From Acidimicrobiia bacterium (GTDB lineage Bacteria > Actinomycetota > Acidimicrobiia > Spongiisociales > ZC4RG35): DNA of 64,000 bases. Position 1 is the stretch's first letter. Every line of letters begins with the position of its first letter. Position numbers and translations under genes: made by a program. Below the pieces are notes generated by a model. That model did no database searches, was not told the DNA's origin, and saw only the letters and a list, made by a program, of their open reading frames with translations. The DNA lies in the NCBI GenBank assembly GCA_965248705.1, contig CBDFJY010000002.1:1322980-1386979 (forward strand). Reading direction: 5' to 3'. Positions 56,283 through 64,000 of this stretch are shown here, piece by piece.

Positions 56283-58169
56283 CTACAGAGGTTCGAGTTC
56301 CAAAGCCTGCTCGGCCGATTCCAGGGTTTGATTTCCCGCCAGCACCGGCAGGAACAGGTCGCCATAGCGGGAAAGACGCTCCCAGAGGTTGGTGATATCA
56401 ATGTCGCCGTTGCGGAAATGTCCCACCTCTTCCCAGAGCAGGGGAACAGAGACGGGAGCGCCGGGAAGGGGGCGTACCGAGTACACCGAGGCGATCGTCT
56501 GGCCGAAAGCGTTGCGGTTGTGGTCGATGAACACCTTCCCCGCCCGCTTGGGCTTGTCCCAGGCGATGGTCAGGTCGTCGGGGTTGGCCGCCACCAACAA
56601 CCCGGCCACTGCTCCCACGAAACGCCGCACCCGCTCATAGGTGTGGACGGGCCGGAGGGGAAGGTAGACGTGCATGCCGCGGCTTCCCGAAAGCTTGGCG
56701 ACCGACCGCAGCCCCAGTTGCTCCAGCGCCATCCCCAGCAGGCGGGTTCCCGCCACCACCTGGGACCATGAGGAGCCCTCGGCCGGATCGAAGTCGAATA
56801 CTGCCCAGTCGGGGTATCCGAGGTCCGGGTGGCGGGAATGAAAAGGGTGGGTTTCCACACACCCCATGTTGGCGAACCACATCAGGGACTCGGGGTGGTC
56901 GGCGCAGAGAAAGTCGATATTCCCGCCCGCCGAGTGCGAGCCCACCGGGAGGGTACGCATCCACTCGGGCTGGTGTCCCGGCGCTCGCTTCTCATAAAAA
57001 GACGGTCCCCCGATCCCGTCTGGATAGCGGGACATCGAGAGGGGGCGGTCCCGGAGATGGGGGAGGAGCGTGGCGGCTATCGAGGAGTAGTAGGTGATCA
57101 GATCACCCTTGGTGTAGCCCTCGGGAAAAAACGGCTTCGACAGGTTGGAGAGCCGTAGGGGAAGAGTGGCGTCGGTTGGCCGGTAGCGGTCTTCCACCGG
57201 CTCGACCGGCGTGGGGTCGGGGAAGTCCACCAGCCCCGATCCGGCCGGCAGGCGGGTGGACGGCTCTTCTTCCAGCCGGTGGAGAACCGAGCGAAGTTCG
57301 GCGCCGATGGCCAGGTGGCTCTTCCACTCCCGCGCCTCGGAGATGACCACCATCGCCAATCCCGTCTCATGGGCGGCCTCGGCCAGAGGGCCGATCCGAA
57401 GAGTCCCCTCTCCGTAGGGAAGATGGCTGATCTCCCCGGCGGGTCCGAATCGGTTGTCGGTGAACTGGGTGTGGAGGGGAGAGAGCATCCAGGCGGGGAA
57501 GGAGTCTTTTATGAAGGCCATCACCGTTTTGAAGCGCTCTGTTCCGGTCAGTCCGCCGCCCGACATGGCGTGAAGATGCGCCCAGTCGATCACCGGTCTC
57601 ACGAAGGGGAACTCCGCAGCCAGCAGGGCAATGTCGCCCAGCGTTCCGAAAGAGCGGTTATTGCCGGCGGTCTCGATCCCCAGTCCCACCCCCAGGTGGG
57701 CCACTTTGGGCGCCAGCATCTCCAAACGTTCTCGGATCGTCTCCATTACCTCGTGCGGCGGACGACCCTTCAGATGACCGGCGTGGGCGACGATCAAGGG
57801 AGCGCCCAGTTCCCGTCCGAGTTTCATGGTGTGCTCCAAAGCCGAGAGGCACATGCGGGCCTTCTCGGGGTCTTCGACGGTCAGCACCGCGAAATAGGGA
57901 GCGTGCGCAGAGAGCCGAAATCCCCGGGCGGCGGCCTGTGTTCCGAACTGGGCGCACCGCGCCTCTTTCCAAGGGAAACCTTTGACGAACGAAAGCTCAT
58001 AGGATGAGATATTCTGCTTTGCTAGGCCGTCCAGGAAAGCTCCGTCGTCGGCGCCCCGAGGAGGTGGGGGGCCCGACACTCCGAACAGGATGGGTTCCCG
58101 GCGTTTGCGGGTGGTGGCCATGGCCGCTATTAATGGTTGCCGAGGCACCGTCCAACCCCGCGCGGGCAA
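56283..58169 (-). CDS. fusion protein: AP endonuclease IV-like TIM-barrel domain plus LigD-type primase-polymerase (PolDom)
   Basis: N-terminal ..LSAHAPYFAVLT.. and ..VAHAGH.. resemble Nfo (HAPYLINL). The C-terminal half contains ..GSRGMHVYLPLRP.. and ..KVFIDHNRNAFGQT.., typical of the NHEJ LigD polymerase domain. Confidence 0.6.
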   Translation of the reverse strand: MPARGWTVPRQPLIAAMATTRKRREPILFGVSGPPPPRGADDGAFLDGLAKQNISSYELSFVKGFPWKEARCAQFGTQAAARGFRLSAHAPYFAVLTVEDPEKARMCLSALEHTMKLGRELGAPLIVAHAGHLKGRPPHEVMETIRERLEMLAPKVAHLGVGLGIETAGNNRSFGTLGDIALLAAEFPFVRPVIDWAHLHAMSGGGLTGTERFKTVMAFIKDSFPAWMLSPLHTQFTDNRFGPAGEISHLPYGEGTLRIGPLAEAAHETGLAMVVISEAREWKSHLAIGAELRSVLHRLEEEPSTRLPAGSGLVDFPDPTPVEPVEDRYRPTDATLPLRLSNLSKPFFPEGYTKGDLITYYSSIAATLLPHLRDRPLSMSRYPDGIGGPSFYEKRAPGHQPEWMRTLPVGSHSAGGNIDFLCADHPESLMWFANMGCVETHPFHSRHPDLGYPDWAVFDFDPAEGSSWSQVVAGTRLLGMALEQLGLRSVAKLSGSRGMHVYLPLRPVHTYERVRRFVGAVAGLLVAANPDDLTIAWDKPKRAGKVFIDHNRNAFGQTIASVYSVRPLPGAPVSVPLLWEEVGHFRNGDIDITNLWERLSRYGDLFLPVLAGNQTLESAEQALELEPL

Positions 58170-58277
58170 AGATAGGCCGGGTTGGCTGTCATAAGGCCAT
58201 TTTTTAAGAAAGTGATGTTTATAGTATCATACGAAAGTGAGTCAATACCGGCTCATCACCTAGGTAAGGAAGTAAAT

Positions 58278-58478
58278 ATGGATCTCCAAGGTATAAGCAT
58301 TGTGGTAGCGGCCATCGGGGCTATCAACTGGGGTTTGATCGGACTGTTCGGCTTTGACCTGGTAGCGGCCATCACTACCGCTGGCAAGTTCGGGTCAACC
58401 AACCTCATCTCACGAATTGTTTATGTCATCGTCGGGATAGGGGGCGGCTGGGCGCTTTACATCCAACTCTTTGGGTAG
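58278..58478 (+). CDS. DUF378-like small membrane protein
   Basis: MDLQGISIVVAAIGAINWGLIGLFGFDLVA. The ATG follows an AAGGAAG RBS in a locally AT-rich, promoter-like stretch. Confidence 0.5.
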   Translation: MDLQGISIVVAAIGAINWGLIGLFGFDLVAAITTAGKFGSTNLISRIVYVIVGIGGGWALYIQLFG

Positions 58479-58510
58479 GGAGCACCAGAGCATCCACTGA
58501 TAATCGCCGT

Positions 58511-58568
58511 CGTCCCATCCTGGCGACCTTTTTCCCAAGCGGGAGTCGGCAGGATGGGACGGCTTTTT
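58511..58568 (+). terminator. putative intrinsic terminator after the DUF378 gene
   Basis: 11-12 bp stem (cgtcccatcctg .. caggatgggacg) with a long loop, followed by gcTTTTTg. Confidence 0.4.
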
Positions 58569-58709
58569 GTTGCACGGGCTAAGGTTTTGGATGGGGCAGG
58601 AAAGAGAAAGCACATTGATGAACATGCTTAAGCGTCCAAAATGGCGTTCACCGGATCACCGCCGGGTGATAGGGGGCGAGGTGATGACCTGATGGGAGGT
58701 GATGACCTG

Positions 58710-59576
58710 ATGGATGGAGACATCCGGTTCGGGATCTGCACCGATCAGTCGATGCCCTACGCCACTTTGGTGGACCGGTGGCGCTACTTTGAGGAACTGG
58801 GGTTCGACAGTGTCTGGGACTGTGACCATTTCCTCCGGCCCAGCAATCCCTCCCATCCCTACTTCGAGGGGTGGACTCTGTTGGCCGCCCTTGCCACCCA
58901 AACCACCCGGATCCGGGTGGGGGTGCTGGTGGGAAGCAACACTTTCCGTCACCCCGCGCTCTTGGCGCAGCAGGCCATCACCATCGACCACATCTCGGAG
59001 GGGCGCTTGGAGTTCGGTTTCGGCGCCGGATGGTTTGTGGAGGAACATCAGCGGTTCGGGATACCTTTCGGTGATCCGCCGGTGCTGGTCGAAAGGTTCC
59101 GAGAAGCGGTCGAGATTATCGACTCGCTCCTCTGTGGCCGGGAAGTCACCTATGAGGGTCGGCACTATCAGCTGAGTGAGGCCCGGCTCCGGCCCCGGCC
59201 GGTGCAGTCTCCCCGTCCGCCTCTCACCCTGGGCGCACACCGTCCTCGTATGCTGGCGATTTGCGCGCGGTTCGCCGACCGGTGGAACTCGTTCGGGACG
59301 GTGGAGGAGATCGCCGAGCGCAATCGGCTGCTGGATCAGGCCTGTGGGAGGATCGGGAGGGATCCCACCGAGATCATCCGCTCCTTCTACGGGTGGTCAT
59401 CCAACATGGCCGCCCAGGGTCTGCCCGACCCGTGGTCGAGCCCCGACGCCTTCACCGAGGTGGTGGGCAGATACGTCGAGGCGGGGGTGAACGAGTTCAT
59501 TCTGGATCAACCCCGTCCCGAACAGTTCAAGATCGCCGAACGGATCGTCTCGGACGTCATCGAGCCGACTCGTTGA
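58710..59576 (+). CDS. LLM-class (luciferase-like monooxygenase family) flavin/F420-dependent oxidoreductase, tandem copy 1
   Basis: MDGDIRFGI..VDRWRYFEELGFDSVWDCDHF..GW..LAAL..T..IR.G.LV..N..RHPALLAQQA.T.DH.S.GRLE.G.G.GW is the LLM fold pattern. Start chosen at the ATG after the GGAGGTGA RBS. Confidence 0.7.
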   Translation: MDGDIRFGICTDQSMPYATLVDRWRYFEELGFDSVWDCDHFLRPSNPSHPYFEGWTLLAALATQTTRIRVGVLVGSNTFRHPALLAQQAITIDHISEGRLEFGFGAGWFVEEHQRFGIPFGDPPVLVERFREAVEIIDSLLCGREVTYEGRHYQLSEARLRPRPVQSPRPPLTLGAHRPRMLAICARFADRWNSFGTVEEIAERNRLLDQACGRIGRDPTEIIRSFYGWSSNMAAQGLPDPWSSPDAFTEVVGRYVEAGVNEFILDQPRPEQFKIAERIVSDVIEPTR

Positions 59577-59791
59577 GTGGCGACGGGCCGTTTGGCCGGC
59601 GCTGTAGGGCGGGCATCCGCAAATTGTTTTGTGTTATGTTGGTTATGACATTGGAAATGGCCGAATGATCGTGCCGCTCGGCCCCAACGGCGTGCGCAGC
59701 GCGGGGGGAACCACCGATGCGCACCGTGGATGGCGCACCGAAGGCGGTTCGAGGAAAACCGGTTTGTGATGAGAGTCGAGGTGATGCTCTG

Positions 59792-60655
59792 GTGAAAGGA
59801 ATGAGGTTCGGTGTTTACACCCCCCAGTGGAAGCCGTATCGGGTTCTGGTGGAGAATTGGCGGTATTTCGAAGAATTGGGGTTCGACAGCGTGTGGCCCT
59901 GTGATCATTTCCACAATCCCGGGCATCCGGACAAGCCCTTTTTCGAGGGGTGGACTGTACTGGCCGCCCTGGCTGCCGAAACCTCCCGGATCAGGGTGGG
60001 AGTGCTGGTGAGCAGCAACACGTTCCGCCATCCGGCGCTCCTGGCGCAGCAGGCCATCACCCTGGATCACATCTCCGAAGGGCGGCTCGACTTTGGGATC
60101 GGCGCCGGGTGGTACGAGTTGGAGCACGAGTGGTTCAGGATCCCCCTGTATGAGCCACGGGTGCGGGTGGACCGCTTTTCCGAGGCGATGGAGATCATCG
60201 ATCCCCTGATGCGCGGGGAGACCGTCTCCTATGAGGGTCGGCACTATCAGCTGAGTGAGGCCCGGCTCCGTCCCCGCTCCGTTCAGTTGCCCCGCCCACC
60301 GTTCATGCTGGCCGGCCACCGCCCCCGGATGCTGGGGATCTGCGCGCGGTACGCGGACGCGTGGAACTCCACCGGGACGGTGGAGGATCTCACCGAACGT
60401 AACCGCCTGGTTGACGAGGCCTGTCGGAGGATCGGGAGGGATCCGACCGAGATAGTCCGTTCCTATCTGGGAGGAAACTCCACCCTGGGCCCCCAGGGTC
60501 TGCCCGATATGTGGTCGAGCCCCGATGCCTTCTCGGAGGTGGTGGGGCGATACGCCGAAGCGGGGGTGAACGAGTTTATCTTCGTCGAACCCCTGCCCGA
60601 GCAGTACAAGATGGTCGAGCGGATCGCCTCTGAGGTGATCGAGCCGAGCCGTTGA
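59792..60655 (+). CDS. LLM-class oxidoreductase, tandem copy 2
   Basis: Paralog of copy 1 (..NWRYFEELGFDSVWPCDHF..). GTG start 7 nt after AGGTGA. The annotated 59717 start adds unrelated leader residues. Confidence 0.7.
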   Translation: MKGMRFGVYTPQWKPYRVLVENWRYFEELGFDSVWPCDHFHNPGHPDKPFFEGWTVLAALAAETSRIRVGVLVSSNTFRHPALLAQQAITLDHISEGRLDFGIGAGWYELEHEWFRIPLYEPRVRVDRFSEAMEIIDPLMRGETVSYEGRHYQLSEARLRPRSVQLPRPPFMLAGHRPRMLGICARYADAWNSTGTVEDLTERNRLVDEACRRIGRDPTEIVRSYLGGNSTLGPQGLPDMWSSPDAFSEVVGRYAEAGVNEFIFVEPLPEQYKMVERIASEVIEPSR

Positions 60656-60706
60656 GTGCGACTGCCCGGCGGGCCCGTTTGTGATGAGAGTGGAGGCGAT
60701 GCTCCG

Positions 60707-61570
60707 GTGAAGGGATTGAAGTTCGGACTCACCGTGACTCCGTCCGAGCCGTATCCGGTCCTGGCGAAGAAGTGGCGGTACTTCGAGGAGTTGGGGTTCG
60801 ACAGCATCTGGCATTGTGATCATCTCCTTCGTCCCAACGATCCGACCGGTCCCCTCTTCGAGGCGTGGACTCTGCTGGCCGCCCTGGCCACCGAAACCTC
60901 CCGGATCCGGGTGGGTGTGATGGTGACCAGCAACGTCCTCCGTCATCCCGCCCTCCTGGCGCAAGAGGCTATCACCGTCGATCACATCTCCGAGGGGCGC
61001 CTGGAGCTGGGGATTGGCTGCGGGTGGTTCGAGGAGGAACACAAGCGGTTCAGGATCCCCCTCTATGAGCCACGGGTTCGGGTGGACCGATTTGAGGAGG
61101 CCTTGGAGATCATCGACCCCCTGCTGAGGGGGGAGACCGTCTCCTATGAGGGTCGGCACTATCAGCTGAGCGAGGCCCGGCTCCGTCCTATGCCGGTGCA
61201 GTCGCCCCGCCCGCCCCTCACCCTGGCCGCCCACCGTCCCCGGATGCTTCGGATCTGCTCCCGCTATGCGGACCGGTGGAATTCCTCAGGAACGATCGAG
61301 GAGATGGCCGGACGGAACCGGCTCTTGGACGAGGCCTGTGAGAGAATCGGGAGGGATCCGACCGAGATCATCCGTTCTTTCCGCGCGGGAGTCTCCAACG
61401 TGGGCAGCCGGGGCCTGCCCGATATGTGGTCGAGCCCCGATGCTTTCACGGAGGTGGTGGGGATATTCGGAGAGGCCGGCGCGACCGAGTTCATCATGGA
61501 CCAGCCCCGTCCCGACCAGTACCAGACGGTCGAGCGGATCGCGTCGGAGGTCATCGAACCCAGTCGTTAA
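60707..61570 (+). CDS. LLM-class oxidoreductase, tandem copy 3
   Basis: Paralog. GTG start (VKGLKFGL) overlaps the uORF stop. Confidence 0.7.
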   Translation: MKGLKFGLTVTPSEPYPVLAKKWRYFEELGFDSIWHCDHLLRPNDPTGPLFEAWTLLAALATETSRIRVGVMVTSNVLRHPALLAQEAITVDHISEGRLELGIGCGWFEEEHKRFRIPLYEPRVRVDRFEEALEIIDPLLRGETVSYEGRHYQLSEARLRPMPVQSPRPPLTLAAHRPRMLRICSRYADRWNSSGTIEEMAGRNRLLDEACERIGRDPTEIIRSFRAGVSNVGSRGLPDMWSSPDAFTEVVGIFGEAGATEFIMDQPRPDQYQTVERIASEVIEPSR

Positions 61571-61609
61571 GGTGGAACCGTCTGTGATGAGAGTGAAGGT
61601 GATGTTCCG

Positions 61610-62473
61610 ATGAAGGGCTTTAGAGTCGGAATTTCCGCCATGCAGTACGAGCCGTATCCGGTTCTCCGGAAGAAGTGGCGATATTTTGAGGAGTTGGGGT
61701 TCGAGAGCATTTGGCACTGTGATCATTTGCTTTTCACCTCGGATTCGACCGTTCCCCTCTTCGAGGGTTGGACTGTCCTGGCCGCCCTGTCCGCCGAAAC
61801 CTCCCGGATCCGGCTGGGGGTGCTGGTGAGCAGCAATGTCCTCCGTCATCCCGCTCTCCTTGCCCAGGAGGCCATCACCGTCGATCACATCTCCGAGGGG
61901 CGCCTGGAAGTGGGGATTGGCTGCGGGTGGTTCGAGGAGGAACACGAGCGGTTCGGAATCCCGCTGTATGAGCCGGGGGTTCGGGTGGACCGATTTGAGG
62001 AGGCCTTGGAGATCATCGACCCGCTGTTGCGGGGAGAGACCGTCTCCTATGAGGGTCGGCACTATCAGTTGGCAGAGGCCCGGCTCCGTCCTCTCCCCGT
62101 TCAGTTGCCCCGCCCGCCCCTCACCCTGGCCGCCCACGGTCCCCGCATGCTTCGGATCTGCGCCCGCTACGCGGACCGGTGGAACTCCACCGGGACAGTG
62201 GAGGAGATGGCCGGACGGAACCGGCTCCTGGACGAGGTGTGTCGCAAGATCGGGAGGGATCCCACCGGGATCATCCGCTCCCTCCGCTTATCGATCCCCA
62301 AATTAGTCTCCCGGGGTCTGCCCGATCCGTGGTCGAGCGCCGGTGCCTTCACGGAGGTGGTGGGCAGATACGGAGAGGCCGGCGTGGACGAGTTCATTAT
62401 CGACCAGCCCCGTCCCGACCAGTACAAGACGGCCGAGCGAATCGCGCTGGAGGTCATCGAACCGAGTGGTTGA
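61610..62473 (+). CDS. LLM-class oxidoreductase, tandem copy 4
   Basis: Paralog. ATG start (MKGFRVGI) overlaps the uORF stop (ATGA). Confidence 0.75.
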   Translation: MKGFRVGISAMQYEPYPVLRKKWRYFEELGFESIWHCDHLLFTSDSTVPLFEGWTVLAALSAETSRIRLGVLVSSNVLRHPALLAQEAITVDHISEGRLEVGIGCGWFEEEHERFGIPLYEPGVRVDRFEEALEIIDPLLRGETVSYEGRHYQLAEARLRPLPVQLPRPPLTLAAHGPRMLRICARYADRWNSTGTVEEMAGRNRLLDEVCRKIGRDPTGIIRSLRLSIPKLVSRGLPDPWSSAGAFTEVVGRYGEAGVDEFIIDQPRPDQYKTAERIALEVIEPSG

Positions 62474-62681
62474 GTTGGGACTGGCGGGTGGGCTGGAGGG
62501 CCATCGTGGGGACGGAGAACTCGGTGTATGTTGGTGACGACATTGGAAGAGGCCGAGTGATCGGGTTGCCGGGGCCATGCCGGCGGGTGCGGCTCGGGTA
62601 GGATCACCGATGCGCGCCGCGGGTGGCGGTAGAGAATATGATCGGGGAATGCCCGTTTGTAACGAGAGTGGAGGTGATGGT

Positions 62682-63560
62682 GTGACGAAAGGACTGAGGT
62701 TCGGTATTACCGTCGTTCAGTCGGATCCGTATCCGGTTCTGGCCGAGAAGTGGCGGTACTTCGAGGAGTTGGGGTTCGACAGCATCTGGCACTGCGACCA
62801 CCTCCTCCGTTCCTTGGATCCGACCGCTCCCCTCTTCGAGGCATGGACCCTGCTGGCCGCCCTGGCCGCCGAGACTTCCCGGATCCGGGTGGGAGCGCTG
62901 GTGAGCAGCAACGTCCTCCGCCATCCGGCGCTCCTGGCGCAGCAGGCCATCACGGTCGATCACATCTCCGAGGGCCGCCTGGAAGTGGGGATTGGCTGCG
63001 GGTGGTTCGAGGAGGAGCACCGCCGGTTCGGGATCCCCCTCTATGAGCCGGGGGTGCGGGTGGACCGCTTCTCCGAGGCCCTGGAGATCATCGACCTCTT
63101 GCTGGTGGGGAAGACGGTCTCCCATGGGGGGCGGCATTATCAGTTGAGCGAGGCCCGGCTCCGTCCCCGCCCCGTGCAGTTGCCCCGCCCGCCGTTCATG
63201 CTGGCCGCTCACGGTCCCCGGATGCTGCGGATCTGCGCACGCTATGCGGACCGGTGGAACTCGTTCGGGACGGTGGAGGAGATGGCCCGAAGGAACCGCC
63301 TGCTGGACGAGGCCTGTGAGAGGATCGGGAGGGATCCCACCGGGATAAGCCGTTCCCTCTGCGTCGAGGACTCCACCAACCTGGCCTCCCAGGGCCTGCC
63401 GGACATATGGTCAAGCCCCGGCGGCTTCGCCGAAGTGGCGGGGAGGTACGCCGAGGCAGGGGTGAACGAGTTCATCATCGAACAGCCCCGGCCCGACCAG
63501 CACAAGACGGTCGAGCGGATCGTTTCAGAGGTGATCGAGCCGGGACGTCGATCTTTGTGA
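62682..63560 (+). CDS. LLM-class oxidoreductase, tandem copy 5
   Basis: Paralog. GTG start (VTKGLRFGI). The leader is degenerated (ATG to ACG). Confidence 0.65.
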   Translation: MTKGLRFGITVVQSDPYPVLAEKWRYFEELGFDSIWHCDHLLRSLDPTAPLFEAWTLLAALAAETSRIRVGALVSSNVLRHPALLAQQAITVDHISEGRLEVGIGCGWFEEEHRRFGIPLYEPGVRVDRFSEALEIIDLLLVGKTVSHGGRHYQLSEARLRPRPVQLPRPPFMLAAHGPRMLRICARYADRWNSFGTVEEMARRNRLLDEACERIGRDPTGISRSLCVEDSTNLASQGLPDIWSSPGGFAEVAGRYAEAGVNEFIIEQPRPDQHKTVERIVSEVIEPGRRSL

Positions 63561-63989
63561 TCAGGCGCTGGCGCTGAGCGGTTTGGTGGGGCGTGACAGC
63601 ACGTACCACCAGGCTACGGCAGCCACCGCCACCAGTATCACCCGCAGCGCGGTGTCGTTGGTGAGCAAGACCGCGGAGACGCTGATCGAGGCTGTGATGC
63701 CCACCAACGCGATGGTCTTGGCGCGGACGGTGAGGCCTCCCTGGTAGCTTCGGATGATCTTTCCGAACACCGGATGGTTGCGGAGCCACATCTCAAAGCG
63801 GCGGGAGGAGCGGGTGAAAAAGAACAGGGCGAGGACCACGAAGTCCGCGGTGGGGATGCCTGGCAGCCAACTCAGGAAAACAAACCCGAGACAGATCAGT
63901 CCCAGGATGAAATAGATCAGGCGGACGAGGGGGAAGCGGGCGATCTTTGCCACGGCCCACAAGGCTACGAAAGTCGGGGCCTTTATCAA
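63561..63989 (-). CDS. DUF454/YbaN-like inner membrane protein
   Basis: Small 3-4 TM protein. ..SWLPGIPTADFVVLALFFFTRSS.. resembles the YbaN family. Confidence 0.45.
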   Translation of the reverse strand: MIKAPTFVALWAVAKIARFPLVRLIYFILGLICLGFVFLSWLPGIPTADFVVLALFFFTRSSRRFEMWLRNHPVFGKIIRSYQGGLTVRAKTIALVGITASISVSAVLLTNDTALRVILVAVAAVAWWYVLSRPTKPLSASA

Positions 63990-64000
63990 AAGCCTCTTGC

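Follow-up and report, generated by a model that had tools for sequence, protein, structure and literature searches.

Mini-ORFs that end on the start codons of tandem luciferase-like oxidoreductase genes in sponge-associated Acidimicrobiia

Is a very short open reading frame (ORF) that ends exactly on the start codon of the next gene a functional part of that gene's translation initiation, or a by-product of the duplication that created the array in which it sits? This question is raised by a 64,000-nucleotide (nt) stretch of the genome of an Acidimicrobiia bacterium (assembly GCA_965248705.1, contig CBDFJY010000002.1, positions 1,322,980 to 1,386,979; hereafter, the window, with coordinates counted from its first letter). 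Between positions 58710 and 63560, the window carries five collinear, same-strand (+) paralogs that encode luciferase-like (LLM) oxidoreductases of 287–292 amino acids (aa), and three of these genes are preceded by an 8-codon upstream ORF (uORF) whose stop codon overlaps the main start codon. Pairwise, the five paralogs are 68–79% identical at the aa level and 73–85% at the nt level, with 61–79% identity at third codon positions. The initial annotation of the window had recognized the five collinear genes on the + strand and their approximate product length of 290 aa, which we confirm, and had placed them 40–140 bp apart on the basis of the longest ORFs; the spacers between the stops and the starts supported by Shine-Dalgarno (SD) sequences are instead 215, 51, 39, and 208 nt. 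The longest-ORF starts of copies 2, 3, and 5 are probably wrong, and standard pipelines would miss the mini-ORFs altogether. The genes, leader blocks, and uORFs are listed below, with peptides given up to the stop codon.

58710–59576, + strand: LLM paralog 1, 288 aa, from ATG58710; alternative in-frame start at ATG58692
59760–59791, + strand: leader block of paralog 2, CGGTTTGTGATGAGAGTCGAGGTGATGCTCTG
59769–59795, + strand: uORF 2, ATG AGA GTC GAG GTG ATG CTC TGG TGA, peptide MRVEVMLW; its TGA overlaps GTG59792 (GTGA)
59792–60655, + strand: LLM paralog 2, 287 aa, from GTG59792
60675–60706, + strand: leader block of paralog 3, a match to the 27-nt block
60684–60710, + strand: uORF 3, peptide MRVEAMLR; its TGA overlaps GTG60707 (GTGA), and its ATG lies 28 nt past the stop of paralog 2
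60707–61570, + strand: LLM paralog 3, 287 aa, from GTG60707
61578–61609, + strand: leader block of paralog 4, a match to the 27-nt block
61587–61613, + strand: uORF 4, peptide MRVKVMFR; its TGA overlaps ATG61610 (ATGA), and its ATG lies 16 nt past the stop of paralog 3
61610–62473, + strand: LLM paralog 4, 287 aa, from ATG61610
62653–62681, + strand: leader block of paralog 5, with ACG (62662–62664) where the others have the uORF ATG
62682–63560, + strand: LLM paralog 5, 292 aa, from GTG62682

A 27-nt block, CCGTTTGTGATGAGAGTGGAGGTGATG, starts at 59760, 60675, 61578, and 62653, with at most two mismatches, and is found at no other site in the 64 kb; zero matches are expected by chance in shuffled sequence. 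Such a block had been ascribed to all five genes, which holds for copies 2–5; copy 1 carries only the SD/start portion, in duplicate. Approximately 17 nt of the block lie 5' of the SD core, fewer than the 30 or more leader nucleotides beyond the SD that had been claimed. The uORFs of copies 2–4 are exactly as originally described: all three junctions are overlaps of 4 nt (-4), and the SD (GAGGTGAT/GGAGG) is located inside the uORF. In copy 5, the replacement of the uORF ATG by ACG had also been correctly noted, yet the same frame is open further upstream, to ATG62638; this state is matched in orthologs, with ACG in locus L001_6 and GCG in L003_6. Thus, the uORF is present in 3 of the 5 copies rather than in each of them, and it is retained across the orthologs described below.

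The relatives of the array come from a scan of one genome per species, with loci labelled L001 onwards; these loci are related to each other, so that the counts obtained from them are not independent. The same array was detected in about 10 sponge-associated Acidimicrobiia genomes (metagenome-assembled genomes), with 4–7 tandem LLM genes in L001–L006, L010, and L011, and 2 or 3 in L007–L009, L012, L013, L015, and L017. A scan of metagenomes yielded a single informative locus, L077, the remaining matches being distant single-copy homologs. Copy 3 shows 92–93% identity to its counterparts in L001 and L003. In a neighbor-joining tree of the proteins, the groups follow the position in the array, each containing sequences from the window and from L001–L011, so the duplications are older than the divergence of these species, and the array is not a recent duplication.

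The leader is conserved beyond what would be expected of neutrally evolving DNA. Within the copy-2 group (10 genomes), third codon positions average 75% pairwise identity, and 35 of the 116 four-fold degenerate sites (30%) are invariant, whereas GATGAGAGT, the 9 nt located 5' of the SD core, is invariant throughout. The 15-nt block GATGAGAGT(C/T)GAGGT contains only one variable site across the 10 orthologous loci, which makes it as conserved as the longest invariant coding runs (14–17 nt); further 5', the copy-2 leader is far more variable. Equal identity in the neighbouring coding DNA, which would attribute the similarity of the leaders entirely to recent segmental duplication, was looked for and is not observed: among paralogs 2–5, the 27-nt block has a mean identity of 87%, compared with 68–79% at third codon positions. 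Purifying selection acts on the leader. The paralogous leaders are alike because each duplication copied the gene together with its leader, so that duplication and selection are both part of the history of this array.

Across the orthologs, the junction of the uORF with the gene is maintained through sequence change. In the copy-2 type, an ATG at position -23 and a TGA within GTGA are present in 11 of 11 loci (including L077), all with peptides of the form MRVEV[ML][AV][LWS]; the two changes in codons 1–5 (GTC/GTT and GTG/GTC/GTT) are both synonymous. The copy-4 type keeps the start, the open frame, and the stop on the start codon in 9 of 10 loci with variable peptides (MRVKVMFR, MKRVEVMD, MRVEVME, MRVEVKV). 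Here, CCATGAAGAGAG in L002 and L005 corresponds to C(C/A)TAATGAG(A/G)G in L004 and L007, that is, ATGAAG versus ATAATG, a shift of the ATG by exactly one codon that stays in frame. In the copy-3 type, uORFs are found in 7 of 9 loci and encode unrelated peptides (MTMGVIR, MGTLR, MDVLE, MRSEARRR). The uORF peptide is not conserved between ortholog groups, and at least 6 unrelated leader sequences display the pattern of a uORF with its stop on the start codon, with TGATG, TAATG, and TAGTG junctions occurring among the orthologs in addition to those seen in the window. The pattern is strongly enriched at LLM genes: in the window and L001–L022, where the same crude automatic calling of genes and starts was applied to both sets, ATG-initiated uORFs of 5–10 codons with a stop on the start codon precede 29 of 50 LLM genes (58%) but only 3 of 155 other genes (1.9%; Fisher p = 1.5e-18, ignoring relatedness), and a stop codon overlaps the start in 65 of 73 LLM genes versus 50 of 188 others.

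In three loci, L002, L004, and L007, the mini-ORF overlaps its neighbours at both ends, with the stop of the preceding LLM gene on the uORF start (ATGA or TAATG) and the uORF stop on the next start (TGATG or GTGA):

L002_4, double overlap: ccATGAagagagtggaggtgatggatTGATG
L004_4, double overlap: caTAATGagggtggaggtgatggagTGATG
L007_1, double overlap: caTAATGagagtggaggtgaaggtGTGA

Elsewhere, neighbouring LLM genes overlap each other directly via ATGA (L002_5/6 and L005_5/6). One gene family would thus achieve coupling either directly or via a mini-ORF. Overlapping or abutting LLM paralogs (ATGA, -7 nt, +1 nt) were seen at L002 8705, L005 8702, L009 6870, and L013 6863.

The leaders of first or solitary LLM genes in the related loci have a different organization. 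In 17 of 18 such leaders, a TANNNT hexamer (TAACCT, TAAGCT, TACCCT, TAATCT, TAGCCT, or TATCCT) is followed, after 7–8 nt, by ATG or GTG, a combination (TANNNT-spacer-RTG, where R is A or G) with a background of 0.17 per kb in these loci and an expectation of 0.007 per 40 nt. The RTG opens an ORF of 5–8 codons (MALSVT, MPMEVMS, MAIEVMR, MAVTWW, VNGEEQR, MTRRTIHG) whose stop falls on the LLM start, as TAATG, TGATG, TAGTG, or RTGA. In L013_1 and L015_1, the corresponding RTG shares the reading frame of the enzyme. The stretch from the mini-ORF start to the main start is devoid of any SD in L017_2 (TAGCCT, 7 nt, then ATGaccagacgcaccatccacggATGA) and in L009_1, so that the main ORF there would be reachable only by reinitiation. 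In distant actinobacterial orthologs, which we predict to be leaderless genes, TAGCCT is followed after 6–7 nt by the gene's own ATG. In the actinobacterial -10 arrangement, TANNNT is followed by the transcription start 6–8 nt later. Leaderless genes are marked by a -10 hexamer instead of an SD upstream of RTG (PMC4633059). From the combination of this arrangement with the leaderless signature, we infer descent from a leaderless gene, the start of which became a coupled mini-ORF in this clade. The first-gene mini-ORF appears to form a leaderless 5' mRNA end and is probably a relic of the ancestral leaderless LLM start. In the window, copies 2–4 have no TANNNT-type hexamer at the right distance, and in copy 1 neither the hexamer nor the ATG of its orthologs survives.

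Given the conserved start, the frame that remains open through the SD, and the stop on the start codon, ribosome delivery is the best explanation of the uORFs: with a probability of roughly 0.6, the mini-ORF delivers ribosomes to the LLM gene by termination-reinitiation, on top of strong SD initiation. The leader would be a translation-initiation module that is duplicated together with the gene and consists of an upstream ATG; AGAGU followed by G/CGAGGUGAU, a strong SD; a spacer of 5–6 nt; and an RTG start followed by A. Translation of the 8-codon mini-ORF would proceed across the SD and terminate at the UGA on the LLM start codon, so that ribosomes would be released exactly at the start, reinitiate there, and add to SD-driven initiation. 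Within the operon, the mini-ORF would bridge the SD-containing spacer of 22–51 nt that would otherwise break the coupling. Termination-reinitiation is nearly abolished by a gap of about 20 nt (PMC10666635), so a mini-ORF running across the spacer is a plausible means of keeping neighbouring LLM genes coupled, and the doubly overlapped junctions of L002, L004, and L007 match this bridging idea exactly. If the AGAGU before GGAGGUGAU also pairs, the SD may engage up to 13 out of 15 nt in the 16S tail, an estimate that uses the canonical actinobacterial tail, which may differ from that of this organism; such extended pairing would explain the survival of AGAGU where the ATG is lost.

A more elaborate scenario, which we propose only tentatively and consider somewhat less likely to be true than false, is that the mini-ORF is a dedicated ribosome relay derived from the old leaderless start. 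A leaderless LLM gene would have gained an SD-led start in another frame, with the old start persisting as an ORF of 5–8 codons; tandem duplication would then have put this module between genes and made it an inter-gene bridge. Ribosomes would pass such a bridge by two successive termination-reinitiations, from the gene stop to the mini-ORF start and from the mini-ORF stop to the next gene start. If this scenario is correct, the present-day genomes capture the leaderless gene, the in-frame extension, the leaderless coupled mini-ORF, the internal relay, and the direct ATGA overlap.

The leaders were also searched for signs of RNA structure or sensing. An Rfam scan of positions 57500–64000 (E ≤ 1) returned no relevant family, only a chance small RNA match inside a coding region. 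Single-sequence folding of the leaders of copies 2–5 gave no significant structure (z-scores from -1.2 to +1.1); the copy 1 leader reached z = -2.3, solely due to its internal duplication. RNAalifold analysis of the 170-nt paralogous 5' regions of copies 2 and 5 from three genomes produced only a weak consensus, in which the apparent covariation arises because only two sequence types are present, and the leaders contain no terminator/antiterminator pair. Sensing through rare codons was considered and rejected: AGA accounts for 5.6% of the Arg codons in the window, which is not extreme, and it coincides with the possible SD extension, so that a constraint at the nucleotide level explains its presence. 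We also considered fusion of adjacent enzymes by stop-codon readthrough, given that the 51- and 39-nt spacers (60653–60709 and 61568–61612) are multiples of three and the main frame across them is free of stops; the corresponding spacers elsewhere are 49, 22, and 34 nt long, so this idea was dropped, the lengths in the window being probably a coincidence. Of the initial suggestion that the leaders are a shared translational control element rather than the product of simple gene duplication, what stands is the selection on the leader and the retention of the uORF junction, whereas no sign of conditional control was detected. The evidence suits constitutive ribosome delivery better than a regulatory switch.

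Several observations weigh against ribosome delivery by the mini-ORFs, and some of them are what would be expected if selection acted on the ribosome-binding site only, that is, on an SD of exceptional length (AGAGUGGAGGUGAU, matched to 3'-UCUUUCCUCCACUA of the 16S rRNA) and its start context, with the uORF a by-product. The main LLM starts already have the strongest SDs among the approximately 45 crude gene calls of the window, which makes the extra value of coupling uncertain. None of the uORF ATGs in the window has a convincing SD. With 16, 28, and 192 nt separating them from the stop before, these ATGs are not obviously placed for de novo initiation or for tight reinitiation. The copy-5 group and the extra gene L001_5/L003_5 retain GAGAGT and the SD and have lost the ATG, so part of the conservation is independent of the uORF. 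Once the distance from SD to start is fixed and the start is RTG-A, the frame and the stop of the uORF arise automatically. There are exceptions among the orthologs: a 2-nt insertion in L003_3 ends the uORF 9 nt early, the uORF of L010_3 is frame-broken, and L011_3 has no ATG. The enrichment counts are inflated by kinship, the control gene calls are crude, and we infer from the sequence that the mini-ORFs are translated, in which direction they act, where transcription starts, and that the SD pairing is extended. Nevertheless, selection confined to the ribosome-binding site, which we regard as unlikely, leaves unexplained the invariant ATG located 9 nt 5' of the SD core in all 11 copy-2 orthologs, the shift of the ATG by one codon, in frame, among the copy-4 orthologs, the three genomes in which this ATG and the preceding stop overlap exactly, and the mini-ORFs that are of unrelated sequence or lack any SD (L017_2 and L009_1); moreover, the long pairing is deduced from the general actinobacterial 16S sequence rather than from the tail of this organism.

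The remaining explanations fare worse. A repressive or sensing uORF, on which translating ribosomes would cover the SD and respond to a signal, for example, by pausing at AGA or through the nascent peptide, would fit the passage of the uORF across the SD, the conservation of MRVEV in the copy-2 group, and the low share of AGA among Arg codons; we nevertheless find it improbable, given the lack of stable or alternative structures, of terminator/antiterminator pairs, and of Rfam matches in these leaders, the divergence of the peptide between ortholog groups, the nucleotide-level explanation of AGA, and the position of the stop on the start codon, which is a signature of coupling, not of occlusion. 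Homogenisation is possible among tandem paralogs, the coding regions contain long identical patches, and some 200 nt of the intergenic region between copies 1 and 2 have a paralogous counterpart between copies 4 and 5, so one could imagine that the likeness of the leaders is a neutral relic of duplication and gene conversion, with selection on the SD alone. We give this hardly any credence: the orthologs group by position, and conversion has not erased these groups, the leader block exceeds four-fold sites in conservation across 10 genomes, and independent changes keep the start, the frame, and the stop. Equally far-fetched is the reading of the block as coding sequence: each enzyme would begin at an in-frame start further upstream and carry the block as additional N-terminal residues (PVCDESGGDxxV-KG). 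The main frame is indeed open upstream in copies 2, 3, and 5, and copy 5 has TATGAT followed, after 6 nt, by the in-frame ATG62649, but the homologs align from the SD-led start, and the extension is excluded for copy 2 by an in-frame TGA in the L003 copy-2 leader and for copy 4 because the sequence that follows the TAA of paralog 3 offers no in-frame start before ATG61610. Copy 5 is the only one that may have a longer N-terminal form.

Outside the three uORFs, the leaders of the array contain two further elements:

58678–58713, + strand: 18-nt tandem duplication of the SD + start module before paralog 1, GAGGTGATGACCTGATGG twice (Tandem Repeats Finder: period 18, 2.0 copies, 100% match)
59630–59642, + strand: extended -10-like motif TGnTATGTT, TGTGTTATGTTGG, 5' of paralog 2, with TATGTT at 59635–59640

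The 18-nt duplication, already described in the initial annotation, is exact, so that an identical copy of the SD and start recurs 18 nt downstream of the first and in frame with it; the SD of ATG58710, GGAGGTGAT, is 6 nt upstream. In the same region (58580–58713), an ORF of 24–33 codons extends from ATG58618 or ATG58591 to TGA58690 and ends in TGATG on ATG58692. A comparable triple repeat (ggagcgcctgatga) precedes the LLM start in L018. In copy 5 (62632–62685), the uORF frame that is open back to ATG62638 forms a 15-codon ORF (MIGECPFVTRVEVMV and a stop) ending in the GTGA of GTG62682, and ATG62649, which shares the frame of the enzyme (MPVCNESGGDGV-TKGLRFG), may be the start of a leaderless long isoform. 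Both the ATG62638 ORF and the ATG62649 start are kept in L001_6 and L003_6, relatives that are too close to be informative.

The uORF of copy 2 is located in a 5' untranslated region. Upstream of it, GTGTTATGTT is invariant in 10 of 10 copy-2 intergenic regions that are otherwise variable, and a paralogous copy of TATGTT is present at 62527–62532; TGnTATGTT is a candidate promoter element. A simple sigma-70 consensus scan called no promoter in the array; the -10-like motifs emerged from the comparative alignment. The intergenic regions 59577–59791 and 62474–62681, which precede copies 2 and 5, are paralogs of each other along some 200 nt and share GTGT(T)ATGTTGG, GACATTGGAAnnGGCCGAnTGATCG, and CACCGATGCGCnCCG. 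In the lineage of the window, L001, and L003, the distance between the -10-like motif and the uORF contains about 105 extra nt compared with L002-type genomes. Among the copy-3 orthologs, that of L006 (3271–4111) reaches a stop after 244 aa and is followed by a second tblastn segment in another frame; this gene appears to be frameshifted or truncated, that is, a pseudogene or an assembly indel.

All five proteins match Bac_luciferase (PF00296, the luciferase-like TIM barrel) with E-values from 6e-49 to 1e-53 (5.8e-49 for paralog 1). The hidden Markov model comparison that the initial annotation had proposed, between TIGR03560 and TIGR03619, favours the former without placing the proteins inside either family: TIGR03560 is the top NCBIfam match for all five, with 212.4–221.8 bits (220.7 for paralog 1), below the curated cutoff of 231.4, and TIGR03619 scores 138–146 against a cutoff of 166.9. 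TIGR03560 is the Rv1855c family of F420-dependent LLM class oxidoreductases. The closest solved structures, at about 1e-20, are 3rao (an uncharacterised LLM protein), 9fp4, and Mer; they include an F420-dependent hydroxymycolic acid dehydrogenase. Thus, the proteins resemble the TIGR03560 family in their best NCBIfam match, in the Bac_luciferase fold, and in having F420 enzymes among their solved relatives, and differ from it in scoring under the curated cutoff, so the most that can be said is that they are probably F420-dependent and Rv1855c-like. An exact-sequence lookup of the copy 4 protein gave no record.

The array is flanked upstream by a gene for a fusion of LigD Prim-Pol with AP-endonuclease-2 and by a DUF378 gene, and downstream by a DUF454 gene. 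The fusion is a 628-aa ORF (56283–58169, - strand) that combines an AP_endonuc_2/xylose-isomerase-like TIM barrel (residues 54–280) with a LigD primase-polymerase (residues 353–606); a LigD Prim-Pol module is not usually paired with a barrel of the AP_endonuc_2 type. Past the DUF378 gene, at 58500–58570, lie two GC-rich hairpins that are complementary to each other and have T-runs (CGTCCCATCCTGGCGAC... and GTCGGCAGGATGGGACGGCTTTTT); they look like a terminator between this gene and the LLM array.

How does this array relate to known systems? A literature search on Acidimicrobiia, sponges, and luciferase-like monooxygenases found no paper. The uORFs in the window match the "coupled" small ORFs of mycobacteria and would accordingly belong to a known class of phenomenon. 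The finding reveals no new regulatory principle. In mycobacteria, RTGA junctions of coupled small ORFs are over-represented, and it is the linkage, more than the peptide, that has been conserved (Shell et al. 2015, PLoS Genet, PMC4633059); ribosome delivery by coupled small ORFs is a proposed route of translation initiation according to a 2025 review (PMC12548453). With the mycobacterial ORFs, those described here share a short out-of-frame ORF (5–50 codons) directly upstream of the gene, a TGA that forms RTGA with the downstream start (GTGA, GTGA, and ATGA in the window), the retention of the architecture rather than the peptide among orthologs, the apparent leaderless form of the first-gene versions (a -10-like hexamer 7–8 nt before RTG), and the host phylum, Actinomycetota. 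Unlike them, the three uORFs of the window are located inside the operon or in a 5' untranslated region, lack a suitably spaced -10-like hexamer, contain a very strong SD, and repeat along a tandem array of paralogs; some mini-ORFs of the relatives overlap genes at both ends, and the system described here is known from its sequence.

Two other classes of systems are less similar. With termination-reinitiation gene pairs joined by ATGA or TGATG (Huber et al. 2019, PMC6728339; 2023, PMC10666635), the LLM array shares the -4 and -1 junctions, the embedding of the downstream SD in the upstream ORF, and, in some related pairs of LLM genes, direct overlap. Here, however, the upstream partner is an ORF of 5–8 codons with no plausible protein function, not a full gene, and the mini-ORFs inside the operon of the window start 16–28 nt past the preceding stop, so that only the downstream junction is tight. 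Leader-peptide attenuators (trpL, ermCL, and the cysteine-rich mycobacterial uORFs) likewise have a short ORF in the leader of a metabolic operon, but the LLM leaders contain no runs of regulatory codons, no alternative hairpins, and no conserved arrest peptide, and the stop is on the start codon. New compared with these systems are the lineage, the repetition along an ancient array of paralogs, the internal, doubly overlapped relay form, and an apparent series from a leaderless gene to a coupled mini-ORF. If functional, these mini-ORFs would extend coupled small ORFs from mycobacteria to deep-branching, uncultured, sponge-associated Acidimicrobiia, and the approximately 60 related junctions would form a natural series (leaderless, in-frame, coupled, doubly overlapped, and SD-less) that could be used to probe the interplay of termination-reinitiation, leaderless initiation, and SD pairing.

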